Part shown: positions 1,984 through 48,862 of the stretch, piece by piece
Position numbering within the stretch: the stretch's first letter is position 1
Layout of the letters: every line of letters starts with the position of its first letter
Source: Candidatus Fimihabitans intestinipullorum
Lineage (GTDB): Bacteria; Bacillota_I; Bacilli_A; RF39; UBA660
Assembly: GCA_018714965.1 (NCBI GenBank)
Contig: DVML01000025.1
Coordinates: 14,207 to 78,206 of the forward strand
Direction: 5' to 3'
DNA: 64,000 nucleotides
Translations under genes and position numbers: made by a program
Notes under the pieces: generated by a model
Told to the model about the DNA's origin: nothing
Seen by the model: the letters and a program-made list of their open reading frames with translations, nothing else
The model's database searches: none

Positions 1984-1991
1984 GATTTACC

Positions 1992-2020
1992 AAAAAAGCG
2001 AAATAACATTTCGCTTTTTT
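1992..2020 (+). terminator. Rho-independent terminator
   Basis: AAAAAAGCGAAAT-aac-ATTTCGCTTTTTT hairpin right after the stop codon. Confidence 0.8.
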
Positions 2021-2080
2021 ACTACTTACGAACATTGTATTTTTGATCTATCTGTAGTATAATGAGAAATAGGTGATACT

Positions 2081-2506
2081 ATGTTTTACATATGGATAGG
2101 AATTATCATTTTATTAACGATTGTGGAGTTATTAACAGTAAAACTAACAACTGTGTATTTTGTTTTTTCTGGTATTGTCGCTTTGTTGCTTTCATTTCGA
2201 GTTGAAAGCTTTCCGATACAGTTTGCGGTGTTTGCAATTTTGGGAATTGTACTTTTGATTACGACGAAGCCAACTTTGGAAAGATTATTAAAACGAACAC
2301 CATCTAGCTTAGATCAAGAATCTATTTTGGGAATGCAGGGAGTTGTGATTGATGCGATGAAGAAAAATCACCCTGGAACAATTAAAGTAGATGGAAAAGT
2401 ATGGGCTGCAATCTCACAAAAGAAAATTAAAGTGGGAAGTACAGTGAAGATACTAGAAGTTGATGGTATGACGTTAAAGGTTGCACCGATTGAAGAAGAG
2501 GCATAA
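2081..2506 (+). CDS. NfeD family membrane protein (short form, C-terminal OB fold)
   Basis: Three N-terminal hydrophobic segments then ILGMQGVV...GTIKVDGKVWAA...KVGSTVKILEVDGMTLKV; RBS AGGTGA. Confidence 0.85.
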   Translation: MFYIWIGIIILLTIVELLTVKLTTVYFVFSGIVALLLSFRVESFPIQFAVFAILGIVLLITTKPTLERLLKRTPSSLDQESILGMQGVVIDAMKKNHPGTIKVDGKVWAAISQKKIKVGSTVKILEVDGMTLKVAPIEEEA

Positions 2507-2521
2507 TAAGCTGGTGGTTGT

Positions 2522-3367
2522 ATGAAAAAAAAGATGAGAAATATTTGGAATGCAATTCAGTGGCCACTTATTTTGGTTATATTTGAATTCTGCATTCTTT
2601 TTCTTTTGTTAGGATATTTTGAGTATCACGAGATACAAACGCAGTTGGACACACATCCTGAATGGTCGATGGCAGAAGCATCTAAGGTGGTAAATCAAAT
2701 TTTAGAGACGAAAGAAGGTACAAACGCAATAGCGCAATTTTTATTAGATCATTTATGGATTTTAGTTCTTTTGAATGCTTGTTTATTGTTACCGATTGTT
2801 TATCATTTTTACAAGAAACATCAACATCGTTTTCCTAGACATGTTTCTGATCGAAGTAAGATCCATATACTCTTCTGTTCTATTGCACTTGCGTTGTGTC
2901 TCAATCTTATATTGACTGGGATTTCCTCTCTCTTTGGGATATCTATAGAGACGGAATCTCAGCTTCGACGTCCTATTTTTTGGATGATTTGTAGTAGTGG
3001 TATAATAGGTCCGATCATCGAAGAGCTTGTATTCCGTGGGATCGTATACGATAGATTGCAAGCGTCTTGCCCCAAGTATCGTGCTTCTTTTTTCACGACA
3101 ATCTTGTTTGCTTTGTACCATGGAAATTTAGTGCAAATTATTTACGCTTTTGCGATGGGAAGTTATTTTATCTATTGTTATGATCATTACGAGAATATTA
3201 CGGCAAGTATTATCGCTCATATAAGTGCGAATGTTTCCACTTTAATTTTACTTCCATATCTTTTAAACTTACCATTTATATGGATCGTTTTATCATGTGT
3301 TATGCTAGCTTTCGTTGGTTATTATATGTTCCAGAAAATTAGAAAAGGGATTAGTATTTATTCCTAA
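2522..3367 (+). CDS. CPBP (CAAX/Abi) family intramembrane metalloprotease
   Basis: GPIIEELVFRG, FALYH and AHISAN motifs in a polytopic membrane protein. Confidence 0.85.
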   Translation: MKKKMRNIWNAIQWPLILVIFEFCILFLLLGYFEYHEIQTQLDTHPEWSMAEASKVVNQILETKEGTNAIAQFLLDHLWILVLLNACLLLPIVYHFYKKHQHRFPRHVSDRSKIHILFCSIALALCLNLILTGISSLFGISIETESQLRRPIFWMICSSGIIGPIIEELVFRGIVYDRLQASCPKYRASFFTTILFALYHGNLVQIIYAFAMGSYFIYCYDHYENITASIIAHISANVSTLILLPYLLNLPFIWIVLSCVMLAFVGYYMFQKIRKGISIYS

Positions 3368-3475
3368 TATTTGGAAATAATAAAAGAGAAGACAAAAAAT
3401 GCAAAAGTTTCTCTTTTTTTCTCTGAAAAATTTTTCTTACGCTGAAAAAAATGGTATAATGTTGATGGTGATGAT

Positions 3476-4216
3476 ATGATTAAAAAAGTAAAAGGAACAA
3501 ATGTTAATTATATCCGGTATGGCAATGAAAAAGGGAAAGAAATTGTACTACTACATGGATGGGGACAAAATATCGAGATGATGCGTCCGATCGGAGATAG
3601 TTTATGCAAAGATTATCATATCACGATTATTGATTTACCAGGATTTGGTGAGAGTGACGAATTAAAAACAGTGTGGTCACTATACGATTATGTAGAGTGC
3701 ATTCATGAATTATTGAAAGAATTAGGAATAAAAAAACCTGTTTTGATAGGGCATTCTTTTGGAGGAAAAATCAGTTTGCTTTATGGAAGTAAATATTCTG
3801 TGGAAAAGATGATTCTTTTTGGAAGCCCATTTAAAAAGGAGATTCAAAAAATTTCCATGAAGACAAAAGTTTTAAAACAATTAAAAAAGGTACCGGGATT
3901 GAATAAATTTGAAAATATCGTAAAAAAACATGTAGGTTCGACAGACTATCGAAATGCATCTCCAATTATGAGACAGGTGATGGTAGAACATGTCAATCTT
4001 GATATAACGGAAGAGGTTAAAAAGATTAAATGTCCTACATTGCTTGTGTGGGGTACATTGGATGAAGCAGTATCATTAGAACGTGCACATGAATTAGAGG
4101 AATTGATTCCAAACGCAGGATTAGTTGAGTATGAAGGATGTACACATTATGCTTATCTAGAACGGTTGGGACAAACAGTACGAGTGATTCGTAGTTTTCT
4201 AGAAAGCGAGGAGTAG
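3476..4216 (+). CDS. Alpha/beta hydrolase
   Basis: LLHGWG, IDLPGFG, GHSFGG nucleophile elbow, WGTLD, catalytic His in THY. Confidence 0.9.
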   Translation: MIKKVKGTNVNYIRYGNEKGKEIVLLHGWGQNIEMMRPIGDSLCKDYHITIIDLPGFGESDELKTVWSLYDYVECIHELLKELGIKKPVLIGHSFGGKISLLYGSKYSVEKMILFGSPFKKEIQKISMKTKVLKQLKKVPGLNKFENIVKKHVGSTDYRNASPIMRQVMVEHVNLDITEEVKKIKCPTLLVWGTLDEAVSLERAHELEELIPNAGLVEYEGCTHYAYLERLGQTVRVIRSFLESEE

Positions 4217-4219
4217 GTT

Positions 4220-5824
4220 ATGTCAGAATATTTTGTATTATCTTTTATTCCGTTTATATTATATGTAGTTTTAAAAACGAGAAAATCATTTCAAATGCTA
4301 CAACAAAATTGGTATAATTTAGATCAACGTTATTTGAAATGGATTTTAAAAAATCCATGGAAAGTATTTATAGAAATCGATATGTTCTTTATCGTATTCA
4401 TCGTAATGCTTGCGATGGATATGATGAGTGCTATGATTCTATTTGGAGTATTCTATATTGTTACATCTTTTTTATACTATCAATCAAATAAAAAAGAACA
4501 GGTAAAATTAAAATTAGCATTTACGAAAAGAGTGCGAAGATTATCTGTTACGACGATGATCTTATATTTAATTCCATTATTTTCTATTTGTTTTATGTTT
4601 GATGCAAACTATATTGCATATTACTACTTTATCATGGGAGCACTCGCATATCTTAACTATTTTGTCGTTCTTGTTGCCAATACAATTAATTTGCCAATTG
4701 AACATCAAGTATTCTTGTATTATAAGAGAAAAGCAACGAAAAAGTTATCTTCTATGTCACAGTTAGACGTAATTGGAATTACAGGAAGCTATGGTAAGAC
4801 GAGTAGTAAAAATATTTTATCGGATATTTTAAATGTGAAGTACAATGCATTTGCAACGCCGAAAAATTTTAATACGACTTATGGAATGATTCGTGCGATC
4901 AATGAATCACTCGATAAATTTAACGATTTATTTATTGCCGAAATGGGAGCTTTTAAGCAGGGAGAAATCAAAGAACTTTGCGATTTTGTTCATCCAAAGT
5001 ATGGAATTTTAACTAGAATAGGTACTGCCCATTTAGAGAGTTTTGGTAGTCAAAGTAACATTCAGAAGGGAAAATTCGAATTGATTGAATCTCTTCCGGA
5101 AGATGGTGTTGGAATCTTAAATAAAGATGATGCATTACAAGTATCGTATCATTTGAAAAATAAATGTCATATTATATGGATTGGAATTGAGCAAAAAGAT
5201 GTCGATGTCTATGCAGAAAATATTCATTTATCTGAGCAGGGGACTTCATTTGATGTCGTATGGAAGAGGGAAAATATAAAAGCAAACTTCCAAACGAGAC
5301 TACTTGGTAAGAATAATGTATATAATATTTTAGCAGCTGTCGCACTTGGAAAGTATTTAGGTATGACGATCGATCAATTAGTGACCGGAGTAAAACAAAT
5401 TCATCCAATCGAACATCGTTTGGAATTAAAACCATTTGGTAATGTTACTTTGATCGAGGATGATTATAATGCGAATCCAATCGGAGCAAAAGAAGCGATC
5501 GAGGTGCTATCGATGATGCCTGGAAAAAAAATTATCGTAACTCCGGGAATGATCGAGCTTGGACCAAAACAATATGAATTAAACTTAGAATTTGGAAAGC
5601 AGATTGGAGAAAGTTCTATCGATGAAGTAATTCTCATTGGAAAAGAGCAGACAAGACCAATTCAAGATGGGTTGAAAGTGGTTGATTATAATGAAAAACA
5701 CATTCATATATTAAATGATGTAAAGCTTGCCTTTCCACTGATTCAGAAGTTGAGTGGTGGCAAAAAAGCATATGCTTTGATTGAGAATGATTTACCAGAT
5801 ACTTTTAACGAGAAGACAAAATAA
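4220..5824 (+). CDS. murF: MurF-type Mur ligase with N-terminal transmembrane region
   Basis: GITGSYGKTSSK P-loop, NFNT, FIAEMGA, AHLESFG, HRLE, DDYNANP, VTPGMIELG; adjacent to ddl. Confidence 0.8.
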   Translation: MSEYFVLSFIPFILYVVLKTRKSFQMLQQNWYNLDQRYLKWILKNPWKVFIEIDMFFIVFIVMLAMDMMSAMILFGVFYIVTSFLYYQSNKKEQVKLKLAFTKRVRRLSVTTMILYLIPLFSICFMFDANYIAYYYFIMGALAYLNYFVVLVANTINLPIEHQVFLYYKRKATKKLSSMSQLDVIGITGSYGKTSSKNILSDILNVKYNAFATPKNFNTTYGMIRAINESLDKFNDLFIAEMGAFKQGEIKELCDFVHPKYGILTRIGTAHLESFGSQSNIQKGKFELIESLPEDGVGILNKDDALQVSYHLKNKCHIIWIGIEQKDVDVYAENIHLSEQGTSFDVVWKRENIKANFQTRLLGKNNVYNILAAVALGKYLGMTIDQLVTGVKQIHPIEHRLELKPFGNVTLIEDDYNANPIGAKEAIEVLSMMPGKKIIVTPGMIELGPKQYELNLEFGKQIGESSIDEVILIGKEQTRPIQDGLKVVDYNEKHIHILNDVKLAFPLIQKLSGGKKAYALIENDLPDTFNEKTK

Positions 5825-7051: not shown

Positions 7052-8521
7052 TTATTTTTTTTGATCGATATTGAGTACGCTAGGACCTTCTAATAAGTTA
7101 CCATCAATATCGAATCTAGAACCATGGCAAGGACAATCCCAAGTACAATCTACTTCGTTAAATAATAAATGACACTTCATATGTGGGCAGATGATAGAAA
7201 CGATGTGTTCACGTCCTTTAGGATCGATATAGATTCCGACACGTTTACCATCTCTTACTTCGATTTTTGCTTGTCCTTTTGGAGATTGGAAAGTCGATCT
7301 GATCATTGCACCAACACTATCGATACCATCTTTTACTGTTTGAATACATCTTTTTAAATTATAAGGTCGATAGGGGAGAAATAAACCTTCATATGGATGA
7401 TGTTTGTCGGTTGCTAATTCAGAGAGAATGATTCCAGCGATCGTACCATTTGTCATACCCCATTTTTGAAATCCTGTTGCAATCATCACATTCGGATGTT
7501 TTTTAGAAATTGGTCCAATGAGTGGTAAATGATCGTTTGGTATGATATCGTGTGTCGACCAGGCATAGGAAGGTTTCATGTGAAAGAAAGATTCGAAGCG
7601 CTCGCTTGTCTTTTCATAGTATTCTTTTTTTGATTTGCACTTTGTCGTCTTGTCGCTTTCACTTGCAAATAAAAGATAATTTTGCTGATCTTGATGATAT
7701 CGAATAGAATAGATTGGATTAGAAATCGTGATTGCAGAAAATGACTTCGTATCTTCTATAGGTGTTGCAACAACATAAGAGGATTCGATATGAGATTTGA
7801 ACGGAACCCAGCCAGGACGGATGAAAAAAGGATAGTGTGTACATATGAGTACCTTTTTCGATCTGATTTTTCCAGCATTCGTATGGGTAATATAAAAGGA
7901 ACCGTCTTGATCAATATCAGTAGCTCTTACGTTTTCCATAATTTTAACCCCTTTAGAAAGAGAAATACGAGCAAGTTCATATAAATACTTTACTGGATGA
8001 AAAACGGCTGTATGAGGTACTTTTAGTGCTTTTAACGATGGAATATCGATTGGAATATTATCCATTGACTCATACTTGACTTCAGTTAGATCTAAAAAGG
8101 ATTGTAGCGTATCTATTTTTTTGATTTGCTCTTCCTTGGTAGCAAATACGTAAGAATCTACTTCTTCAAAGTTGCAATCTATTTTTTCTCTTTGGACAGT
8201 TTGTTTTACAAAAGCAATCGCATCCCTTTGTGCCTGCAAGTAGGAGAGAGCTGTATTTGTATCGTGTGTATCGATAATTTGTTCGTAAATTTGATCTTGT
8301 AAATAAGTTAACTTTCCAGTCGTGTTGGATGTAACACCAAAGCCAATTTTATCTTTATCGATCAATAAAATATTTTTTTTCGTCTTCGATAATTGATATA
8401 ATGCGGTGATACCAGCAATTCCACCACCAATAATTAAAATATCTACGTCTTTTTCTTTGTAATCAATCTTTGTATCAGAGAGAGGTTCAATTCCTTCTTG
8501 CCATAATGTTTTTTTCTTCAT
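7052..8521 (-). CDS. FAD-dependent oxidoreductase with C-terminal Rieske [2Fe-2S] domain (YhfW-like)
   Basis: GGGIAG FAD motif, KWGMTNG, CPHMKC...WDCPCHGSRF; start moved to ATG at 8521 behind GGTGA RBS. Confidence 0.88.
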   Translation of the reverse strand: MKKKTLWQEGIEPLSDTKIDYKEKDVDILIIGGGIAGITALYQLSKTKKNILLIDKDKIGFGVTSNTTGKLTYLQDQIYEQIIDTHDTNTALSYLQAQRDAIAFVKQTVQREKIDCNFEEVDSYVFATKEEQIKKIDTLQSFLDLTEVKYESMDNIPIDIPSLKALKVPHTAVFHPVKYLYELARISLSKGVKIMENVRATDIDQDGSFYITHTNAGKIRSKKVLICTHYPFFIRPGWVPFKSHIESSYVVATPIEDTKSFSAITISNPIYSIRYHQDQQNYLLFASESDKTTKCKSKKEYYEKTSERFESFFHMKPSYAWSTHDIIPNDHLPLIGPISKKHPNVMIATGFQKWGMTNGTIAGIILSELATDKHHPYEGLFLPYRPYNLKRCIQTVKDGIDSVGAMIRSTFQSPKGQAKIEVRDGKRVGIYIDPKGREHIVSIICPHMKCHLLFNEVDCTWDCPCHGSRFDIDGNLLEGPSVLNIDQKK

Positions 8522-8642
8522 AGGATCACCACTATTATTATGAACAATTCCGAAAATATTATAAAAATTAGTGTCAAATATAGTAAAGATCACTTTCATG
8601 AAGTATGAAATGTGTTACACTGTATTTATAAGAGGTGATAAT

Positions 8643-9668
8643 ATGCGTGCAGCAACGTTAGTTGGAAAGAGAAAATTTGAAATCAACGAAATCGAAGAGC
8701 CAACTTCTAAAAATGGTGAGGTGTTAATACACGTTTTAAAATCAGGTATTTGTGGATCTGATTTACATTATTTTGAAACAGGAGAGCCAAAAGGACTAGT
8801 ACTTGGACACGAATTTTGTGGAACGGTCATCGATCCTGGAGATCGTACGGATTTAAAAGAAGGAGATGTCGTAACAGCGCTTCCAATTTCTCCTTGTGGT
8901 CATTGTAGTGCTTGTACTAGTGGAAATCCACAATATTGTAAAGAAACCTGGAAAGATGCGGTAGGATTATCTATGACACATCCAGGAGGACTCACAAGTA
9001 AAATCAGCGTAAGAGGAGACATGGTGTATAAGGTTCCAGATAATGTTCGTCCAGAAGAGATGGCAATGGTAGAACCGACTGCAGTCGCACTTCACGGTGT
9101 ACATTTAGCCGATATTAAACTAGGACAGAAAGTTCTTGTCATCGGTGGAGGAATCATTGGACTTATGAGTGCGATGTTAGCTAAGAAAGAAGGAGCTAGC
9201 TTTGTCGCTGTCAGCGAGACCAATCCAAACCGTGGAAAGAAAGCATTGGCACTCGGAGTTGCAGATAAGTATTATGATGCAACGAAGGAAGACATGATTA
9301 TGGAAGTAATGCAGGATACAGGTAGTGGTTTTGATGTCGTAATAGAGTGCTGCGGGAATGCTCCAGCAGTTACAAGTTCACTTTTGATGGTAAAACCTGG
9401 TGGAACTGTGACGCTTGTTGGAGTTGCAACAGGTCCGATTTCTATTCCAACCGTCATTGCAGTTATGAACGAATTGACAGTAAAAGGAGCAATTGCTTAT
9501 ACGAAAGATGAATTTGAAACTTGTATTCAAATGATCGCATCAAAACAAATTGAAGTTATGAAGTTTGTCGATGATATGATTCCATTATCTAAAGTACAAG
9601 AAGCATACGAGAGACTCACAAGTGGAACGGATGATGCAGTTAAGATATTAGTTGATCCAAATCAATAA
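8643..9668 (+). CDS. Zinc-dependent alcohol/polyol dehydrogenase (MDR family)
   Basis: GICGSDLH, GHEFCG, CGHCSAC...C structural Zn, GGGIIG; ATG at 8643 behind GAGGTGA. Confidence 0.9.
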   Translation: MRAATLVGKRKFEINEIEEPTSKNGEVLIHVLKSGICGSDLHYFETGEPKGLVLGHEFCGTVIDPGDRTDLKEGDVVTALPISPCGHCSACTSGNPQYCKETWKDAVGLSMTHPGGLTSKISVRGDMVYKVPDNVRPEEMAMVEPTAVALHGVHLADIKLGQKVLVIGGGIIGLMSAMLAKKEGASFVAVSETNPNRGKKALALGVADKYYDATKEDMIMEVMQDTGSGFDVVIECCGNAPAVTSSLLMVKPGGTVTLVGVATGPISIPTVIAVMNELTVKGAIAYTKDEFETCIQMIASKQIEVMKFVDDMIPLSKVQEAYERLTSGTDDAVKILVDPNQ

Positions 9669-26105: not shown

Positions 26106-26221
26106 TTTGCTTCTTTTTGTATGAAATGTATTTGCGCCCAGTTTTTGTTACTTTTAAACAAAAGACGACTTTTTTCGATTGTTTAAATGCTATTCTAGAA
26201 GAGTGGATAAAGGGGGATTTT

Positions 26222-27028
26222 ATGCAAGAGCAACAAATGAGAGGGTTAATTGCGGAGTTTCAAACACAACTCGCTTCTATAGAGGGAAGATTAACTGCGT
26301 TTCAATATACTTCAGAATTAAGGGAGTATTTCAAGTCTTATATCGTGACAGAATTAGAGAAAGATAGAGTTTCGTTAGATCAGATGAAACAGGCATTCTT
26401 TTTTTCGAGTACGAACGAGGAAGATCTTTGTCGTCAATATTTTTTTTTAGAAAAACACGATTATCTTTTAAGTATTAGTGAAATTATCGATATGAATTAT
26501 CATATGAGAGAGATTAGAGAACAGATTCGACAACTGACAAAAATCGTGTTTGATCGATTGCGAAGGCAGATTGTAGTACACTTGAAAAGTGAAAGTCAGA
26601 GTAGAATCACTTTAGAAAGTCATGCGCTAACAGGATATGATCTATCCTATTTATTAAATGAAATTGGAATTCCTTCTAATTTAAAAGGTCGTCAATATAT
26701 CGAATATATTATGATTGAATTATTAGAGCGTAAGTTATCGATCAAAGATGGAATTACGACATCGATTTATCCGATGGTTGCAAGTTTCTTTCAGACGACA
26801 CCGAGTAAAGTGGAACGTTCAATTCGTCATGCGATCGAAGTTGCTTGGATGAGAGGAAATGAGCAACTGTTACACGAATTATGTGGATATACAGTATCTT
26901 TTTCGGCATCGAAACCGACAAATAGAGAATTTTTAGCAAATTTGTTTCATTATCTAGAACTAAAATTATGCCATAATGGAATTGATAAAGAGAGTTTTTC
27001 TTCATTACGACATTCTTTGTTATCATAA
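26222..27028 (+). CDS. Spo0A C-terminal DNA-binding domain protein lacking a receiver domain
   Basis: EIGIPSNLKG..Y...IT..IYP.VA..F.TTPSKVERSIRHAIEVAW.RG...GYTVS...KPTNREF matches the Spo0A_C signature; N-terminal ~140 aa helical with no REC motifs; ATG at 26222 behind AGGGGG. Confidence 0.85.
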   Translation: MQEQQMRGLIAEFQTQLASIEGRLTAFQYTSELREYFKSYIVTELEKDRVSLDQMKQAFFFSSTNEEDLCRQYFFLEKHDYLLSISEIIDMNYHMREIREQIRQLTKIVFDRLRRQIVVHLKSESQSRITLESHALTGYDLSYLLNEIGIPSNLKGRQYIEYIMIELLERKLSIKDGITTSIYPMVASFFQTTPSKVERSIRHAIEVAWMRGNEQLLHELCGYTVSFSASKPTNREFLANLFHYLELKLCHNGIDKESFSSLRHSLLS

Positions 27029-28511: not shown

Positions 28512-29357
28512 ATGAAGAAGTTTTTTCAGTTATTAGGACTATTTGCACTTGTTTGTGGAAGCTTTTTCTATACCGAGAAGACTGTGTCTGTCGTTCGTGA
28601 TATGGATGAAATTATGATACAGATTAAAGAACAGGCAGAGATAGATAAAACCGATGCGATCGATGCTAAGATCGATGGAGATATGGTCATTCCGGGTAAG
28701 AGTGGAAGAGAGATCGATATCGATCAAAGTTATCAGAAGATGAAACAATATGGGGCTTATACTCCGAAATTACTCGTGTACGAACAAGTAAAGCCTGCTC
28801 GTAGTATCGATCAATATTATCACAAGTATGTAGTAGGTGGAAATCCTTCAAAAAATCAAGCTACTATTATTTTTTTGGTGGATGAAAAAAGTGATCTTAC
28901 AAAGATAAAGAAAATTATGAATCAGGAAGAGGTGAAAGCCAATTATTTTGTCGATGGGATGTGGTTAGAACAGAACAACGAAGAGATGATTCACTTGATC
29001 GAAGAAGGAAATATCATTGGAAATTTAAGTTATCAAAGAGATTATACGAATAGTTCTTTCGTGTGGATGGATACGATTATTCGAAGAGTAGGGGAACAAA
29101 AACAAGGATATTGTTATGCGGAAAATAAAGATAAAAAAGTGATCGATAATTGCAAGTTACAGAAAAATTTTACGATTGTGCCAAACCTTATTACGAAAGA
29201 ACATCCTTTTTCAGAAGTAAAAGAGAAGTTACAACCAGGTAGTATAATTTCTCTTGCAATTAATCAGACGACAGAAGAACAGTTGCTATCGATTGTTCGA
29301 TATATTAAATCAAGAGGATATGCTATCGTTACTTTGGATGAGTTGTTGCATGAGTAA
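28512..29357 (+). CDS. YlxY/SwsB-like sporulation polysaccharide-deacetylase-fold protein (catalytic motifs degenerate)
   Basis: N-terminal TM, DAKID...IPGKSGREIDIDQSY.KMK, GNPSK, FVDG.W.E.N, IGNLSY, PGSII, GY.IVTLDELL. Confidence 0.75.
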   Translation: MKKFFQLLGLFALVCGSFFYTEKTVSVVRDMDEIMIQIKEQAEIDKTDAIDAKIDGDMVIPGKSGREIDIDQSYQKMKQYGAYTPKLLVYEQVKPARSIDQYYHKYVVGGNPSKNQATIIFLVDEKSDLTKIKKIMNQEEVKANYFVDGMWLEQNNEEMIHLIEEGNIIGNLSYQRDYTNSSFVWMDTIIRRVGEQKQGYCYAENKDKKVIDNCKLQKNFTIVPNLITKEHPFSEVKEKLQPGSIISLAINQTTEEQLLSIVRYIKSRGYAIVTLDELLHE

Positions 29358-32335: not shown

Positions 32336-32405
32336 ATCAATAGAAAAGCGTAGACTTTTCTATTTTTTTGTATTATAATAAATGACAATTTTAGGAGGTG
32401 ATCAC

Positions 32406-34754
32406 GTGATAAAAACTAACTTGCCAGTCATTTTATTACGTAATATGTTATTACTTCCTAATAACGAGTTAAGATTCGAGTTCGATCAAGACGAAACAAA
32501 AAATATATTAGATGTCGCGGAACTATTTCACGAAAATAAATTACTTGTTGTAAGTAGTGAAGATTCATTAGAAGAAATGCCAGATTTAGAAGGACTACCT
32601 AATGTTGGAGTGATTGCAGTCATCGAAAGTAAAATGGAATTGCCTAATGACAAAACGCGAGTCGTGATTCGTGGACTAGAACGAGCTCACATTATAGAGT
32701 ACTTAAATATTACGCGTACGAAAGAAGTATTAGAAGCAATTGTTCAAAAAGAAGAAGAAGAGGAAATTTCGGAGGATAAGAACCGTATTTTAGTACATAA
32801 ATTACTTACGGAATTAGAAAGCTACCTAAAAAAAATTCCTTATATGAGCAATAGTATGATGGCGTCGATTCGCAAAGAAAAACAACTGCCTATCGTTACA
32901 GATATGATTGCTCCTCATCTCCCTATTTCGACGGAGAGATACTATGAATATTTAGGAGAATTTAAAGCTGTCATTCGTGCAGAGATGATCTTAAAAGATC
33001 TATATGAACAAGAGCATATATTCGAGGTTGAAAAAGAGATTGATCAACGAGTAAGAAAAGAAGTAGATCAACATCAAAAAGAGTTTTTATTACGTGAACG
33101 CATGAAAGTGATTCAAGAAGAGTTAGGAGAAGAAGAGTTTTCTAAAACAGAGGTAGATCGCTTTTTAGAAAAAGAAAAGAAATTACGTTTGCCCAAAAAA
33201 GTAAAAGAACGTTTAGATAGTGAGATACACCGTTACAAGTCTTTGCCACCGATGTCCCCTGAAGTGAATATGATTCATACATATATCGATTGGATTTTAG
33301 ATTTGCCTTGGAGAAAATATTCTGAAGATTGTAAGGACTTCTCTTTCGTTCAAGATAAACTAAATGAATCCCATGCGGGATTATCTAAAATTAAAGAACG
33401 TATTATAGAATTTTTAGCGGTTCGACAGATGGCAGGTAAAATGTCAGGTTCGATTATCTGTTTTGTCGGACCTCCAGGTGTAGGAAAGACGTCACTTGCT
33501 TTTTCTATCGCAAAGGCGATGAAACGAGAATTTGTGAAAATTTCAGTCGGAGGAGTTTCCGACGAATCAGAGATTATGGGACACCGTCGCACTTATATCG
33601 GAGCAATGCCCGGACGTATTATTCAAGCGATGAAGCGATCTCACACCAATAACCCAGTTTTCTTGATCGACGAAATCGATAAAATGACAAAATCGATTCA
33701 TGGGGATCCGGCAAGTTGTTTTTTGGAAATTTTAGATCCGGAGCAAAATAAAATGTTTCGTGATAACTATATCGAGGAAGCGTATGATTTATCGAATGTC
33801 TTATTTATTTTGACAGCGAACGATATCGATGAAATTCCAGATCCGCTTCGCGATCGACTTGAAATTATCATGTTGGATGGTTATACGGAATATGAAAAAC
33901 TCGATATAGCTAAAAATTATTTAATTCCAAAATTATGTCGTACTCACGGGTTAAAACAAAAGCAAGTGGAAATAAGTGATCGAGAGATTCTATACATGAT
34001 TCGATATTATACAAAAGAAGCAGGAGTACGTGAATTAGAAAGACAATTGGAAAAAGTGCTAAGAAAGATCGTGACAAAAATCGTAGTGGCACATGAAAAA
34101 AAGAGAGTATACCACATCTCTCATCAGGATTTGTTATATTATTTAGGAAAAGAAAAATTTCAATATATGAAACGAGGAAAAAACGTTCCCGGGGTGGTCA
34201 ATGGGCTTGCATATACTTCCTATGGTGGAGATACATTGCCGATTGAAGTGAATTATTATAAAGGAAATGGAAATCTTGTATTAACAGGGTGTTTGGGAGA
34301 TGTGATGAAAGAGAGTGCTACGATTGCACTTTCCTATATTAAATCAAATGCTGAAATGTTACATATTCCATATAATATGTTAGTAGAAAACGATATTCAC
34401 ATTCACGTTCCGGAAGGAGCGATTCCAAAAGATGGACCTAGTGCGGGAATTACGTTAGTAACAGCTCTTTATAGTGCATTTCAAAAGTTAAAGGTAGAAC
34501 GAACGATAGCGATGACTGGAGAAATCACATTACAAGGGCAGGTATTACCTGTTGGAGGAATTAAAGAAAAAAGTCTTGGAGCAGCACGGCAAGGGATTAG
34601 AACAATTTTGCTTCCTCATGAGAACTTAAAAGATTTAGATGAGGTTCCAGAGGAGATCAAAAAGAAAATTCGTTATATTCCAGTAAAATACTATGTGGAT
34701 GTATTAAAGTATTTGAAAGAAGGAAAAGAATATGATTTTGCGAGAAATAGATGA
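32406..34754 (+). CDS. lon: ATP-dependent Lon protease
   Basis: Lon N domain, GPPGVGKTS, IDEIDK, EAGVRELER, PKDGPSAG, MTGEI, GGIKEK; GTG start behind AGGAGG. Confidence 0.96.
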   Translation: MIKTNLPVILLRNMLLLPNNELRFEFDQDETKNILDVAELFHENKLLVVSSEDSLEEMPDLEGLPNVGVIAVIESKMELPNDKTRVVIRGLERAHIIEYLNITRTKEVLEAIVQKEEEEEISEDKNRILVHKLLTELESYLKKIPYMSNSMMASIRKEKQLPIVTDMIAPHLPISTERYYEYLGEFKAVIRAEMILKDLYEQEHIFEVEKEIDQRVRKEVDQHQKEFLLRERMKVIQEELGEEEFSKTEVDRFLEKEKKLRLPKKVKERLDSEIHRYKSLPPMSPEVNMIHTYIDWILDLPWRKYSEDCKDFSFVQDKLNESHAGLSKIKERIIEFLAVRQMAGKMSGSIICFVGPPGVGKTSLAFSIAKAMKREFVKISVGGVSDESEIMGHRRTYIGAMPGRIIQAMKRSHTNNPVFLIDEIDKMTKSIHGDPASCFLEILDPEQNKMFRDNYIEEAYDLSNVLFILTANDIDEIPDPLRDRLEIIMLDGYTEYEKLDIAKNYLIPKLCRTHGLKQKQVEISDREILYMIRYYTKEAGVRELERQLEKVLRKIVTKIVVAHEKKRVYHISHQDLLYYLGKEKFQYMKRGKNVPGVVNGLAYTSYGGDTLPIEVNYYKGNGNLVLTGCLGDVMKESATIALSYIKSNAEMLHIPYNMLVENDIHIHVPEGAIPKDGPSAGITLVTALYSAFQKLKVERTIAMTGEITLQGQVLPVGGIKEKSLGAARQGIRTILLPHENLKDLDEVPEEIKKKIRYIPVKYYVDVLKYLKEGKEYDFARNR

Positions 34755-35556
34755 ATTATGGATCGATCAAATTGAGGCGGAATTATACGTCGATTACTTA
34801 TGTTATGCAGAAGATAGTCAACTCTCTAAAGAGATGTTATTGCGACTCAAGAATCCGGATTATTCAGAGGCGTTATATTATTTGTTATTAACGGTCGTAC
34901 CAGAAGGTGTAGATATTTCTGAGAAGATTCGTCACAGAATGCTGTTGTTACTTGAATTGATAGAGATTTATTTTCCGCAGGACGTATTATTTTCTGATGC
35001 TATCATGACTTATTGGAAAGAAGCACTATTTCAAAAGCAAGGGGTAAAAGAAACCAAAATAGAAGCAAGAGAAAAACTACAATTTTTAAGTTGTATCGAT
35101 GTAAAAAAAACTGACGAGCAAGAGAGAAGATATGATGAGAAAAGGGCGAGAGAATATGCTTTTTTCCGATTTCTCTGCCAAATAGATGTAACCGAGAGGG
35201 GAAAGAATGGAGTTTATCTATATGCGGATTACATTCTTGATCCTTATCTACCATCAATTATCGATGATTGGTATAACCGATTTCCCGCAATATTTAGAAT
35301 CGATGAAATGACTGAAAAGATCGTATTTTTACTATCATCTCGCAGTGCTCTTACGAGGGCGGAGATAGAAGATTCTATTGATTTCGAGGTAGAGATAGAA
35401 GATGGGATCTTTCAGCATCAATATTCAAAGGAAGAAATAAAAAAGGTTCAATCACTAGATCCACACGGATTCGTGGATGATTTATTAAATGATATACAAA
35501 CAATGCTGGCATCATATGATCAAAACAATATGCCACGGAAAAAGTTAATGGCTTAG
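34732..35556 (+). CDS. Orphan ~270-aa acidic helical protein, tandem paralog 1 of 4
   Basis: Overlaps the lon 3' end; shares motifs with the next three ORFs. Confidence 0.75.
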   Translation: MILREIDELWIDQIEAELYVDYLCYAEDSQLSKEMLLRLKNPDYSEALYYLLLTVVPEGVDISEKIRHRMLLLLELIEIYFPQDVLFSDAIMTYWKEALFQKQGVKETKIEAREKLQFLSCIDVKKTDEQERRYDEKRAREYAFFRFLCQIDVTERGKNGVYLYADYILDPYLPSIIDDWYNRFPAIFRIDEMTEKIVFLLSSRSALTRAEIEDSIDFEVEIEDGIFQHQYSKEEIKKVQSLDPHGFVDDLLNDIQTMLASYDQNNMPRKKLMA

Positions 35557-35566
35557 GAGGTATAAT

Positions 35567-36385
35567 ATGGCACGACATACAAAAGAAGAAATAGATTATG
35601 CATACGACCAAGCAAATATTGAAAATATTTTACAATACTTTTGCTATGCAAATCCTATTCAATATAGAATCGAAGAGGATCCGTTATTATTATCGGTTGA
35701 TTTCGTAATGGAACTAATGGATTTAATATTATCGTATTCTGAGAATAAAAACATCTCAAAGTCGATTCGCAATAACTTAATTGGCTTGATCAATTATATG
35801 GGAAGAATTGCTCCACACTATGAGACGATCGCACAACCAGGGCTTTTAGAAGAGTTAAAACACGTATTAAGACAAAGTTCTGAAGAAAATAAAGAATCAA
35901 GTGAATACATGCTTTTTTGCGATACGAGAGAAGACATGGTTAGTAAGGAAGAGTATAAAATTCATAAGGAACAATATCGAGAAGAATTATATGCTTTTTT
36001 ATTAGATGAGACTTATTTTTTTGATCATTGTTGTATACCCGATTTGGACGTTAATAATTTGATTTCGCTCGCACGTAGACCGGATGTTTTGTCAATGGTC
36101 TATCGTTTTATCGATAAACATAAAATCCTGATAGAAGCCCCTTTATGTCACGATCGATTACAGTTGTTACTTTTTGTACGTGATGCTATGGAGCAAGCTA
36201 CAACGTCTCTTGAATTTCGATTTACAGAACAAAGCGGTCATGAAACGAGAGTTCAAGTAGATCATGAATTATTTTCACATTTATATCATTATCATGAAGC
36301 GTCAGAGCTAAAGGAACTCAAACACAATTTAGAAAGTTATCATAAAGGAGAAGTTCCAATAAGAAGAAAATTGGATTTAAACTAG
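35567..36385 (+). CDS. Orphan ~270-aa acidic helical protein, tandem paralog 2 of 4
   Basis: RBS AGGAGG; similar size and motifs to neighbours. Confidence 0.75.
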   Translation: MARHTKEEIDYAYDQANIENILQYFCYANPIQYRIEEDPLLLSVDFVMELMDLILSYSENKNISKSIRNNLIGLINYMGRIAPHYETIAQPGLLEELKHVLRQSSEENKESSEYMLFCDTREDMVSKEEYKIHKEQYREELYAFLLDETYFFDHCCIPDLDVNNLISLARRPDVLSMVYRFIDKHKILIEAPLCHDRLQLLLFVRDAMEQATTSLEFRFTEQSGHETRVQVDHELFSHLYHYHEASELKELKHNLESYHKGEVPIRRKLDLN

Positions 36386-36399
36386 AAAAGAAGGATTTT

Positions 36400-37212
36400 A
36401 TGAAAAGTCAAGAATATGAAGAATATAAGGAAGTAGTTGTAGATTGCTATGTAGAATATCTGATATGTATACCAGAACTTTCAGAATTGAATATGCTTGG
36501 GAACTTTTTGTGTACTGATTTGGTTGCTCAGAAAAAGCTTCAAAAGATCGTTGATGAAATGGACGAGCATAAAAATTGTGGGCTAGAAAAAAGAAAGCGT
36601 TTGAGGGAGTTATGCGCTGTTGCGTATCATTACGCAAAAGAAAAAAAGTGGATTGCGGAACAAGAAAAGTATGAATCATTATCTTGTAAGATTGCTACAT
36701 TGTCAAGTGAAAATTACGACACTTTTTATCGTCGACAATTTTTAGATATTTTAGATGTTTCTATGCAGGAGAATGTCTTAGAAAGTCATACAACAAGAGA
36801 GTTAGAATTTACATTAGATCAAATCAAATGTTTACAATATATCTGTTTGGTAGATTTATCGAAAGTAGAAAACATTCTTCCACAGATTGAGTATTATGTA
36901 AAATATCCTTTTACAAGTTATATGGCTGATATGTTATTAGATCAGTATCCAATACTTGTTACAAATGATGCTTTTTATTACTTTATGAAGCATGTATATA
37001 TGGTACGACTTGCTTTTTTAACGACGATGCAGCAGTCTATCGATGTGGAATGGATGGGACAGAGTTCAACCATTACGTGTACAGATGAAGAATATGATGA
37101 TTTGTATTATTTTGATCCACTTGAACATCAAGAGAATTCTTTTCAAACGTTAGAAGAACTTCGCGATCAATGGACAAAACCACATAGTGGAAAATCTATG
37201 TTGATAAGTTAA
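36400..37212 (+). CDS. Orphan ~270-aa acidic helical protein, tandem paralog 3 of 4
   Basis: RBS GAAGGA; similar size and motifs to neighbours. Confidence 0.75.
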   Translation: MKSQEYEEYKEVVVDCYVEYLICIPELSELNMLGNFLCTDLVAQKKLQKIVDEMDEHKNCGLEKRKRLRELCAVAYHYAKEKKWIAEQEKYESLSCKIATLSSENYDTFYRRQFLDILDVSMQENVLESHTTRELEFTLDQIKCLQYICLVDLSKVENILPQIEYYVKYPFTSYMADMLLDQYPILVTNDAFYYFMKHVYMVRLAFLTTMQQSIDVEWMGQSSTITCTDEEYDDLYYFDPLEHQENSFQTLEELRDQWTKPHSGKSMLIS

Positions 37213-37222
37213 GGAGAGTAGT

Positions 37223-38038
37223 ATGTTAGAAGATAGAGAGTATATGACGCAAGATAGATTTGATGTATGGTTGAATGCAAAATTATATCAACCGGATTTT
37301 CAGATTGACGAGGCTTTTTTAAGAGATCTTTTTCAGTTTGAGACGGACGAGTTTCTCATAGATTTTCTATATCATGTGTTTGTTGGAAAATATATGGGAG
37401 GGTATCCAAAGGAACATCTAATAGACTTACTTTGTGAAATTCAGTCGGTCCCACATTTGATAGATCATGAGAGAACGTTATATCAAACAGATCGATTAGT
37501 AGAGATGATCGAGCATGCTGATGATCATAATAGGTACTGGTATTATAAAAATTGGAAATATACACATCTTTTAAACGATTCTTACAATTATAGTTTATTA
37601 GAAGAAGATATTTATGAGTTGATTATTTTGGAAAATGAGGTTCTCCATTATCTAGATGAGAAAGTTTTATATGATCTAGAAGAAGAAAAAGATTTTCAAA
37701 AAGGGCAAAGACTGGAGCGCACATTTCAAAGGTTGCTACATTCCACGCATACGACGTGTGCGATTCAAGCTTTGATTTACGATGTTGAAGAATTGATTGT
37801 AGATAATGATTATTATACTGAAATCATGAAATTACTAGAAGGAAGAAAACAAATTTTAACTTCTTTGCACGAAGATAAAATCGAAAGAAGATCACTATCT
37901 CTTTTTCATGATGGAAGATTGATTACTGTAGACTATGGAGATACAGAGTCTAATATAGATAAAACTGTACGATATATGGATCAAGTATATAAGGAAGATT
38001 ATGGAAGCGAAAGATATCAAAATACATTATTTCATTAA
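37223..38038 (+). CDS. Orphan ~270-aa acidic helical protein, tandem paralog 4 of 4 (most diverged)
   Basis: RBS AAGGAG; same length class; weak motif similarity. Confidence 0.7.
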   Translation: MLEDREYMTQDRFDVWLNAKLYQPDFQIDEAFLRDLFQFETDEFLIDFLYHVFVGKYMGGYPKEHLIDLLCEIQSVPHLIDHERTLYQTDRLVEMIEHADDHNRYWYYKNWKYTHLLNDSYNYSLLEEDIYELIILENEVLHYLDEKVLYDLEEEKDFQKGQRLERTFQRLLHSTHTTCAIQALIYDVEELIVDNDYYTEIMKLLEGRKQILTSLHEDKIERRSLSLFHDGRLITVDYGDTESNIDKTVRYMDQVYKEDYGSERYQNTLFH

Positions 38039-38075
38039 ATAGATAGTTCTAGGCTATCTATTTTTTTCATATATT
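38037..38075 (+). terminator. Terminator of the lon-paralog operon, overlapping a sigmaE-like promoter of spoVID-ysxE
   Basis: AAATAGATAG...CTATCTATTTTTTT hairpin; TTCTA...CATATATT (38068-38075). Confidence 0.65.
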
Positions 38076-38100
38076 GTAGTAAATGTGGAGGGAGAGAATT

Positions 38101-38829
38101 ATGAAAAAGATAATACCATTTAAAAAGGAGATCGTATTTAAGACGAATTTAGCAGAAGTTACGAGTATTTCTCTAGAACATTCCCTGCATGTAGAGAATG
38201 ATCAATTGATTACAGGATCTTTCGAAGTCAGTGGGGAATATAAAATATCGGATAATAGCGCAACGACAGATGTATTTTCATTTGAGTTGCCATTTGATAT
38301 CGAAATGGATGATCGTTATGATTTATCTGGGTGCTCGGTAGATATTCATGATTTTTATTATGAGATTATCAATAATAGTATTTTGGCTGTCAATATAGAA
38401 GTAAGTGTTTCTAATTTCAAAGAAAAACCATTGATAGAAGAGGAGGAAGAAGAATTGCAAGAGGTAACACGTACGATTACACCGTTAGAGGCAGATTTGG
38501 TAAGAGAAGAAACAGAACCTACATCAGAAGGATCAGAAAAGATAGAAGAACCAGAAGAAATTTTTAACAAGGGAAGGTGTGTCGAGGAAGAAACTCCAGA
38601 GGATTTACCAAAGGAGAGAATTGGAACTTTATTTGATTCTTTTGATGAGACGAAAGAAACGTATGCGACATATAAAGTATATATCGTAAGAGAAGGCGAT
38701 ACGTTAGAATCTATTTTAGAAAAGTATAGTACGACAAAAGAAATTCTAGAACCGTACAACCAATTATCAGAACTACAACTCGGAATGAAGTTAATCATTC
38801 CACAGACGGAGCATGCGACAAATATTTAA
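38101..38829 (+). CDS. spoVID: SpoVID-like spore coat assembly protein with C-terminal LysM domain
   Basis: SISLE...ITGSFEVSGEY...DFYYEI N-domain, acidic linker, YIVREGDTLESILEKY...G.KLIIP LysM; synteny with ysxE. Confidence 0.7.
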   Translation: MKKIIPFKKEIVFKTNLAEVTSISLEHSLHVENDQLITGSFEVSGEYKISDNSATTDVFSFELPFDIEMDDRYDLSGCSVDIHDFYYEIINNSILAVNIEVSVSNFKEKPLIEEEEEELQEVTRTITPLEADLVREETEPTSEGSEKIEEPEEIFNKGRCVEEETPEDLPKERIGTLFDSFDETKETYATYKVYIVREGDTLESILEKYSTTKEILEPYNQLSELQLGMKLIIPQTEHATNI

Positions 38830-39706
38830 CGTACTTGAGCGTTATCAGATCAAACCTAAAAAGTATGTGATGAAAGGAAAAGCGACCTTGATCGAAACAT
38901 CGGAAGGTCGCTTTGCAATCAAAGAGAAAAATCGTTCTGAAAATGGGAAAATTTTGCAGTATTTGAATTCTAGAAATTTCGATTATTATCCCAAGGTAAA
39001 GATCGAAGATGATAGTTATGAAATTAGAGAATACATCGAAGATATCAATATGCCAAGGGATCAAAAGATTGCTGATCTTATCGATCTCGTTAGTTTATTA
39101 CATAATAAGACGACACATTACAAGGAAGTAGATGAAGATGACTATAAAATCATTTTCGAAGATATCAAAAATAACATTGCGTATTTAACAGAGTATTATA
39201 ACGATATCATTTCTATTATCGAGACGAAAGTTTTTATGAGTCCGAGTGAATATTTATTTGCACGCAATGTAAGTAAAATTTACTCTTGTCTTCACTACTG
39301 TGATGTGGAACTAGATCGTTGGTATGATTTGATGAAAGAAAAAAGAAAACAACGTGTCGTTGTTTTGCATAACAATTTATCTTTAGATCATTTTTTAAGA
39401 AATCAAAGCTCGTATTTGATTAGTTGGGAGAAAGCCAAAATTGGAATTCCTATTTTTGATTTATACAAGCTTTATAAAAGACATGGTTTAGAATTTGAAT
39501 TTGGAGAGCTCTTAAAACAGTATGAGAGAAATTACCCATTACAAAAAGAAGAGAGAATGTTATTTTTTATTTTAATCTCTCTTCCAGATAAAATAGAATT
39601 TACAGCGTCAGAGTATAAAATGTGCCATATCGTGAGTGATTTTATCGATTCGTTATATAAGACAGAACAATTGATTTCACCATATTATGTGGAACAAGGA
39701 AAATAA
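38813..39706 (+). CDS. ysxE: YsxE/CotS-family spore coat kinase-like protein
   Basis: DL..LVSLLH.KT.HYK, SPSEYLF, R.VVLH.NL.LDH, LISWEKA, P..DL..LY; directly after spoVID. Confidence 0.75.
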   Translation: MRQIFNVLERYQIKPKKYVMKGKATLIETSEGRFAIKEKNRSENGKILQYLNSRNFDYYPKVKIEDDSYEIREYIEDINMPRDQKIADLIDLVSLLHNKTTHYKEVDEDDYKIIFEDIKNNIAYLTEYYNDIISIIETKVFMSPSEYLFARNVSKIYSCLHYCDVELDRWYDLMKEKRKQRVVVLHNNLSLDHFLRNQSSYLISWEKAKIGIPIFDLYKLYKRHGLEFEFGELLKQYERNYPLQKEERMLFFILISLPDKIEFTASEYKMCHIVSDFIDSLYKTEQLISPYYVEQGK

Positions 39707-48788: not shown

Positions 48789-48815
48789 TTAGCACTCATA
48801 TGTTGACAATGCTAA
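48789..48815 (+). promoter_or_regulatory. CIRCE element 1 (HrcA operator) overlapping the -35
   Basis: TTAGCACTC-N9-CAATGCTAA; promoter TTGACA(48803)-17-TATAAT(48826). Confidence 0.85.
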
Positions 48816-48835
48816 CATATAATAGTATAATGAAG

Positions 48836-48862
48836 TCAGCACTAAGGATTGAAGAGTGCTAA
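48836..48862 (+). promoter_or_regulatory. CIRCE element 2 (HrcA operator)
   Basis: TCAGCACTA-N9-GAGTGCTAA. Confidence 0.85.

Follow-up and report, generated by a model that had tools for sequence, protein, structure and literature searches.

Three diverged paralogs directly behind lon in Candidatus Fimihabitans intestinipullorum belong to an undescribed, fast-evolving helical protein family and are candidate Lon accessory factors

Directly behind the gene for the Lon protease (lon), Candidatus Fimihabitans intestinipullorum carries four consecutive open reading frames (ORFs), here called A to D. They lie on a 64,000-nt stretch of contig DVML01000025.1 (positions 14,207 to 78,206; assembly GCA_018714965.1) that we refer to as the window. 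We find that A, B and C belong to an undescribed, unannotated and fast-evolving family of helical proteins of ~200-270 aa and that, judged by sequence comparison, they are diverged paralogs of one another. Members of it are present in at least 17 of the 214 genera sampled from the bacterial family, a group of spore-forming Bacillota with genomes near 1 Mb, nearly always at a tight junction with lon, which bears out for A to C the view of an earlier note on this DNA that the array is an old gene family coupled to lon. The fourth ORF, D, is restricted to the genus, and we see the case as evenly balanced between a hyper-diverged fourth copy and an unrelated gene. For A to C we tentatively favor a role as Lon accessory proteins, whether as adaptors, regulators or dedicated substrates. 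The unit consists of the following features, given in window positions:

32382..34754, + strand: lon, LonA type, a 790-aa ORF (Pfam LON_substr_bdg, AAA, Lon_lid and Lon_C, the last at E 1.9e-80)
34732..35556, + strand: A, 274 aa, paralog 1 of the lon-3' helical family; the 23 nt from its ATG to the lon stop are shared with lon
35567..36385, + strand: B, 272 aa, paralog 2 and, in iterative searches, the copy nearest to members in other genera
36400..37212, + strand: C, 270 aa, paralog 3 (B-C shuffle z 7.4; inside the jackhmmer family)
37223..38038, + strand: D, 271 aa, genus-restricted orphan (orthologs in this genus only)
38037..38068, + strand: intrinsic-terminator-like hairpin with U-run that closes the lon-A-B-C-D unit (fold -10.3 kcal/mol, z -5.1)

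The earlier note had this layout exactly right, from the coordinates and the lengths of 274, 272, 270 and 271 aa to the shared strand, the overlap with lon, the 10- to 14-nt spacers and the single terminator. The A/B, B/C and C/D spacers measure 10, 14 and 10 nt, and their Shine-Dalgarno motifs (GAGG, AAGGA and GGAG) are kept in three species of the genus: the present genome (G000) and two others (G001 and G002), which carry the same four genes at identical lengths. The terminator has a 12-bp A+T-rich stem, which is why a consensus scan overlooked it; none of 200 shuffles is as stable, and its sequence is identical in the three species.

Pairwise BLASTP and phmmer comparisons among A to D detect weak similarity. 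By Smith-Waterman alignment, A-B and B-C score 92 each against a shuffle mean of ~40 (z 7.4), a score that none of 300 shuffles reaches, and window-wise shuffling gives z 5.7 and 7.9 for the two pairs. Both alignments are collinear and run near full length, pairing residues 5-272 of A with 8-269 of B and residues 42-262 of B with 37-265 of C. As the A-C pair taken alone gives a z of 1.5, A and C are joined through B. With thin ortholog alignments, hhalign matches A to B at E 0.0018 over 239 columns, and the matches between B and C (E 0.049) and between A and C (E 0.15) are short and non-collinear. In jackhmmer searches, B and C enter the family with no background ORF, and A enters through B. 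These comparisons show that A, B and C are diverged paralogs. Of the four paralogs that the earlier note had proposed, three are thus upheld (z 7.4 for A-B and for B-C), while D is not (z ~0, and absent from every iterative search). The collinear motifs that the note had listed fall in the same alignment columns in A, B and C. The similarity of D to A-C is not significant, and the profile comparison that the note had suggested leaves B-D at E 0.15. An internal duplication within each protein, suggested by "QY.C" motifs in the N-terminal and middle parts, was rejected (N-half versus C-half, z -0.4 to 1.4).

The route from these genes to the wider family was synteny, by way of the two genes that follow the terminator:

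38101..38829 (ORF caller start 38083), + strand: spoVID-like gene, outside the unit (Pfam LysM and SPOCS_spoVID-N; TIGR02907 at E 2.5e-12, below cut-off)
38813..39706, + strand: ysxE-like spore-coat kinase-fold gene (TIGR02904 at E 4.7e-33, below cut-off)

Of 61 genomes sampled in the bacterial family, 52 have YsxE, and for 40 genera we read the sequence that lies upstream of it. A jackhmmer search over 285 ORFs from such loci, started from the 217-aa orphan downstream of lon in genome G077, converged at 12 proteins with no background ORF among them: six lon-downstream orphans from five genera, plus B and C from each of the three species of the present genus. On an enlarged set of 353 ORFs the search gathered 32 proteins, including all four ORFs of an array in genome G384. 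A profile of the family, run genome-wide on 401 genomes from 214 genera of the bacterial family, matched 26 genomes in 17 genera, with three matches per genome in the present genus only. Outside the bacterial family, among 399 scored genomes of the class, it gave one marginal match (G522, E 4.5e-5), which is not adjacent to lon.

Since the genome-wide profile search is blind to gene position, adjacency to lon provides an independent test of the family. We examined 14 of the 18 matching genomes outside the training alignment (G408 and the three weakest matches were left out) together with G216, giving 15 newly detected members. In 13 of these 15, including all seven new genera, the family gene or its array lies directly 3' of lon. 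The junction itself is tight: 19 of 20 genomes have the gene start between -44 and +4 nt relative to the lon stop. Where lon is not followed by spoVID (G053, G086 and G164), the family gene stays with lon. Across the 40 genera read upstream of YsxE, lon directly abuts spoVID in 11, among them the closest genus with data (G042), and is separated from it by one or two ORFs in 9; the fetched stretch contains no lon in the remaining 20. The inserts between lon and spoVID are orphans in every case except one Mur ligase (G048). Three of the orphans could not be linked to the family: a 231-aa ORF in G014 (L043:8589-9284), a 277-aa ORF in G055 (L050:2479-3312) and a 187-aa ORF in G078 (L070:5552-6115). 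The one in G055 is related (z 6.4) to an ORF of 393 aa that immediately precedes spoVID in G052 (L063:4188-5369).

Database searches offer no annotation for any of the four proteins. In Pfam and NCBIfam nothing scores above cut-off for A to D (NCBIfam, 0 families at E up to 1), the 30 members have no recurrent Pfam family, and sequence-profile searches of the PDB give a best E of 0.41 for the family and 0.11 for D. When B was searched exhaustively by phmmer against 1.84 billion representative proteins, only close orthologs came back, as they did in word-index searches with A, B and D. In the ESM Atlas the top score for B was 0.81, a range that shuffled proteins reach one third of the time, and D had no usable match; a lead from this search to DUF6553 was dropped when Pfam gave no confirmation. 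A keyword search of the literature found no description of a lon-adjacent accessory gene family, which is not proof of absence. The proteins A to D are acidic (pI 4.6-5.1), soluble and rich in tyrosine (6.2-8.5%), with no signal peptide and no hydrophobic segment of membrane-span length.

A structure model of B from a 17-row alignment (pLDDT 83.8, pTM 0.80) shows about twelve helices up to residue 210, a beta-hairpin at 215-231 and a helix at 245-259. The hairpin and last helix make up a C-terminal extension of ~50 aa that genus members carry and that is absent from the ~215-aa members of other genera. The best structural neighbors, for residues 3-108 of B, are helical domains of the ENTH/VHS/ANTH/CID kind at 5-17% identity; the scores lie in the tool's range for unrelated helical proteins and cover the first 100 residues only, and we claim no membership. 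An alignment of 30 members contains no invariant column and no C-terminal motif conserved across the family. The lack of an invariant column, together with a model of B that is all-helical except for the short hairpin, argues against an enzyme and suits a binding or scaffold protein.

We compared the genes between the three species of the genus (G000, G001 and G002) by the Nei-Gojobori method. The dN/dS ratios are 0.13-0.18 for A, 0.13-0.17 for B, 0.15-0.26 for C and 0.02-0.07 for D, beside 0.03-0.04 for Lon and ~0.1 for the U32 peptidase and HemW, from which it follows that all four ORFs are under purifying selection. A to C are relaxed relative to Lon, yet they are not diversifying, and the earlier note's term "diversifying" is not supported in its selective sense. 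At the protein level G000 and G002 are 72% identical in A, 74% in B, 76% in C and 99.6% in D, compared with 85-98% in the six flanking genes. The near-identity of D is explained in part by low synonymous divergence: dS, at 0.85-1.03 in Lon, A, B and C, falls sharply past the C/D border to 0.076 in D and is 0.19 in SpoVID. This pattern suggests that a tract at 37212-38829, with one end at the C/D junction, recently passed between the two species by homologous recombination. Further along, synonymous divergence between G000 and G002 climbs back to 0.31-0.54 in ysxE, dinB and hemW (window versus L005).

These data also bear on the idea that the array is a variable set of defense, toxin-antitoxin or effector-immunity genes inserted at a hot spot; the earlier note had raised a variable effector or immunity set. 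Such a set could account for the variable copy number, the orphan genes and the patchy distribution. It is at odds with the absence of a signal peptide or transmembrane segment, with dN/dS values well below 1, and with a base-composition profile of the region that has no step at the array. PADLOC yields no family for A to C and a single sub-significant match for D (E 0.0022, 15.5 bits) that we take as chance, and PHROGs yields no family for any of the four. We regard such a set as extremely improbable and see no support for an effector or immunity role.

Copy number at the lon-3' slot varies from genus to genus: none, one, two separate, two fused, four (G384), or three plus D, as here. Forms of 420-438 aa consist of two ~210-aa units fused in tandem (G008 and G058). 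In a maximum-likelihood tree of 30 units, many branches are long and several forks are open, and we used supported groups only. A, B and C form one clade (99/98) apart from other genera, with A and B as sisters (93/72), which shows a genus-specific triplication followed by long divergence; the stem branches of the three measure ~1.3 to 3.4 changes per site. Two further supported groups hold the arrays of G004, G233 and G384, and another grouping unites the C-terminal halves of two fused proteins. By this tree, the four-gene array of G384 arose independently, and the arrays of G384, G233 and G004 were built in another genus. That array (L082, oriented 1835-4912) holds four family genes of 247, 248, 254 and 236 aa between lon and spoVID. 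G233 (L083) has two family genes and a 110-aa fragment, and G004 (L048) has two. Members of 420-461 aa were seen in several genera, at L052:4531-5847, L038:7956-9218, L084:2871-4148, L086:3449-4822 and L091:2794-4107, and as the 461-aa ORF of L087.

D resembles A to C in position, size, charge and strand, and in sequence it stands apart. Shuffle tests of D against A, B and C give z 0.20, 0.07 and -0.14, and iterative searches over the locus ORFs never include it (jackhmmer E ~0.1). An earlier, thinner family profile left D within background. Against the final 30-row profile, D matches at P 0.011 over 78 in-register columns that include the LLEGR region (probability 3.8%), and the three D orthologs rank first, third and fourth among 186 unrelated ORFs of like length, with an unrelated YsxE in second place. 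A, a proven member, falls below D against an out-of-genus profile (E 0.82 versus 0.1). The structure model of D (pLDDT 42) is not usable. Two further leads were rejected. The secondary structures of B and D seem to correspond one to one by eye, yet the match at zero shift (0.646) is below the maximum at an arbitrary shift (0.673). A link between D and the ORF downstream of lon in G055 gave z 3.9 and then 3.1 (6 of 500 shuffles) and a profile E of 0.18, with unrelated ORFs reaching z 3.8. A D profile run over the 401 genomes of the bacterial family found the genus orthologs and three chance-level matches. In each of three RNA-library runs, one high-depth contig matches two short stretches inside D, of 26 and 21 nt (37383-37408 and 37624-37644). 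These contigs reach a depth of 160 and have ~960 other letters between both stretches, where D has 215; they are probably the sequence of an unrelated organism.

The earlier note had also proposed that all four genes are true paralogs whose products form a hetero-oligomer, which would require D to have diverged beyond sequence recognition. The matching length of D (within 4 aa), its strand, spacing and acidic charge fit this proposal, as do its weak in-register match over the LLEGR region and its place atop the empirical background. The G384 array, in which all four genes are detectable members, and the poorer score of A than of D against the out-of-genus profile point the same way. Set against them, no similarity test of D is significant, the order of secondary-structure elements in B and D is no better at zero shift, the model of D is unusable, and D is under much tighter constraint than A to C. 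We consider a four-paralog hetero-oligomer very unlikely.

For A to C we return to a role as Lon accessory proteins, a reading that we place just short of evenly balanced. We favor it because the junction with lon has been kept while nearly every residue of the family changed, and because the gene follows lon rather than spoVID. In the mechanism that we propose, genes A to D would be co-transcribed and translationally coupled with lon, and their products would be scaffold-like helical proteins that bind Lon or Lon clients. They could act as specificity adaptors, as activity regulators or as dedicated Lon substrates with a regulatory role, and duplication with divergence would have produced a small panel of factors with different partners. 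Metatranscriptome contigs from four runs of one study (X2, X6, X7 and X8) cover all of A to D and bridge the lon-A, A-B and B-C junctions, with parts of the region uncovered in runs X6 to X8; they are weakly consistent with expression together with lon. A complex prediction for full-length Lon with residues 1-205 of B, using alignments per chain, returned a score of 0.00 and a mark of 0.32, which neither supports nor opposes binding.

Several observations weigh against this role. The family is found in only 17 of the 214 genera sampled, and lon abuts spoVID in 11 of the 40 loci; its absence from many genera, and the direct lon-spoVID junction in the closest genus with data, indicate that Lon works without it. 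Two members were not found beside lon: G412, a strong match (E 1e-14) with no lon in the 1.2 kb available, and G057, a weak match. The 30 members offer no conserved motif, degron or residue to which a mechanism could be anchored. Upstream of lon there is no CIRCE operator at up to three mismatches, by a search that recovered, as a control, the two copies before hrcA in the window. The RNA contigs come from one study in which DNA carry-over is possible, and they are no proof of a single transcript. Gene adjacency alone, finally, is a weak predictor of physical interaction.

The same facts can be read as a slot behind lon that is transcribed by read-through and tolerates inserted or new genes, so that A to D would be hitch-hiking orphans, useful but with a function unrelated to Lon. 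The patchy distribution (17 of 214 genera) and the very fast evolution, with no invariant column and branches of 1-3 changes per site, are in keeping with this explanation, and the slot does hold ORFs that could not be linked to the family (G014, G055, G078 and D) as well as the Mur ligase of G048. It accounts less readily for a single family that has kept its position and tight junction while Lon itself diverged to 50-60% identity, for a family gene that stays with lon when the downstream neighbor changes, or for purifying selection. On balance we think it unlikely that these genes are passengers.

A further possibility is that the array encodes sporulation or spore-coat proteins that work with spoVID-ysxE, such as lineage-specific coat or encasement components. 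The organism has a genome of 1.3 Mb (94% complete) with SpoIVA (372 bits), sigma-E-like and sigma-K-like factors and a Spo0A-like gene, and the presence of these genes makes it probably a reduced-genome spore former. In most genomes spoVID-ysxE directly follows the family genes, coat proteins are commonly confined to a lineage, and A to D are acidic and rich in tyrosine, all of which would suit a coat function. Yet tyrosine is similarly frequent in unrelated neighbors (YsxE 8.4%, HemW 7.1%), and A to D match no NCBIfam sporulation model, while the neighbors match spore_VI_D and spore_ysxE. The conserved terminator stands between D and spoVID, the latter with a ribosome-binding site of its own and a possible promoter motif, and in G053, G086 and G164 the family gene is beside lon, with spoVID elsewhere or absent from the stretch. 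We judge a coat function quite improbable. In Bacillus subtilis the order is lonA-ysxC-hem genes-spoVID-ysxE, which fits the view that the lon-spoVID adjacency is probably a relic of synteny from which the intervening genes were lost. If A to C are Lon accessory proteins, the proximity of spoVID-ysxE would be such a relic of ancestral gene order, with no functional link.

Very few Lon adaptors or regulators are known, and those were found singly, by genetics. A family kept at the 3' end of lon across many genera despite near-total sequence change and a varying copy number supplies, from genomics, a concrete candidate for a new kind of Lon partner and, if it is one, an example of how reduced-genome gut bacteria diversify regulated proteolysis. 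A bolder version, which we hold to be somewhat on the unlikely side, is that the locus is the first protease-encoded "adaptor cassette": a set of fast-evolving Lon factors coupled to lon, with copy number shifting between 0, 1, 2, fused 2 and 3-4, through which each lineage would retune its LonA targets, and of which D would be a further member. Were this so, the retuned targets could include sporulation regulators in minimal-genome spore formers. If the genes instead prove unrelated to Lon, they still present a clean case of how orphan genes are born, duplicate and fuse at a single fixed site in the chromosome.

The remaining features of the region concern lon itself and its surroundings. Before lon lies one further candidate signal:

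32351..32379, + strand: sigma-70-like promoter candidate (TAGACT-17-TATAAT; consensus scan, 10/12 matches)

It is a candidate only, as the total of such sites across the region is not above that in shuffles. The true start of lon is probably the GTG at 32406, seven nt 3' of AGGAGG, rather than the called ATG at 32382, because the consensus N-terminus of orthologs opens at the IKTNLPV stretch that follows this GTG. Besides this full-length lon, the genome has a short 344-aa ORF elsewhere with a weak Lon_C match. Proteins of 330-344 aa with a weak Lon-like match only were seen on contig C37 of G000 (C37:6954-7295) and in G019 (L055, oriented 8278-9270), where the short Lon-like gene lies directly upstream of spoVID, the place of full-length lon in other genera. 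The spoVID-like gene of the window has the ribosome-binding site GGAGGGAGAG, and a motif CATATATT lies directly 3' of the terminator; a sigma-E or sigma-K promoter was considered there, but no convincing -35 element could be placed, and we do not claim one. The two tandem copies of CIRCE, the HrcA operator, are at 48789-48862, just upstream of hrcA-grpE-dnaK-dnaJ, with 2 mismatches each. The Spo0A-like gene (26117-27028) matches the C-terminal part of TIGR02875 only (residues 93-282, 104.7 bits against a cut-off of 200) and is a divergent Spo0A, found here in a genome of 1.3 Mb. At 28512-29357 lies the gene of a YlxY-like deacetylase.

Among known systems, SmiA of B. subtilis is an adaptor of LonA with SwrA as its client and a demonstrated effect, and the paper describing it names HspQ as the only other Lon specificity factor (PMC9204741). 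As there described, SmiA is a small accessory protein that gives a Bacillota LonA a client, which is like the role proposed for A to C; its client and effect are demonstrated, however, whereas the role of A to C is a proposal. Nor is smiA known to lie behind lonA or to belong to an expanding gene family. LarA of Caulobacter is a small allosteric activator of Lon and is itself a Lon substrate; its gene shares a sigma-32-controlled operon with a small heat-shock gene, and it acts through a five-residue C-terminal degron (PMC10665427). This dual role as regulator and substrate is one plausible mechanism for A to C. LarA belongs to a heat-shock operon, whereas the genes of A to C follow lon, which has no CIRCE before it, and their family has no conserved C-terminal motif. 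Neither SmiA nor LarA has a demonstrated feature in common with the lon-3' family. In systems of the ClpS-ClpA type, the gene for an adaptor shares one operon with the gene for an AAA+ protease. The likeness lies in an accessory factor whose gene stands beside, and is co-expressed with, that of the unfoldase it modulates. ClpS, though, serves another protease, has another fold and is kept as a single conserved copy, whereas the family behind lon is variable both in sequence and in copy number.

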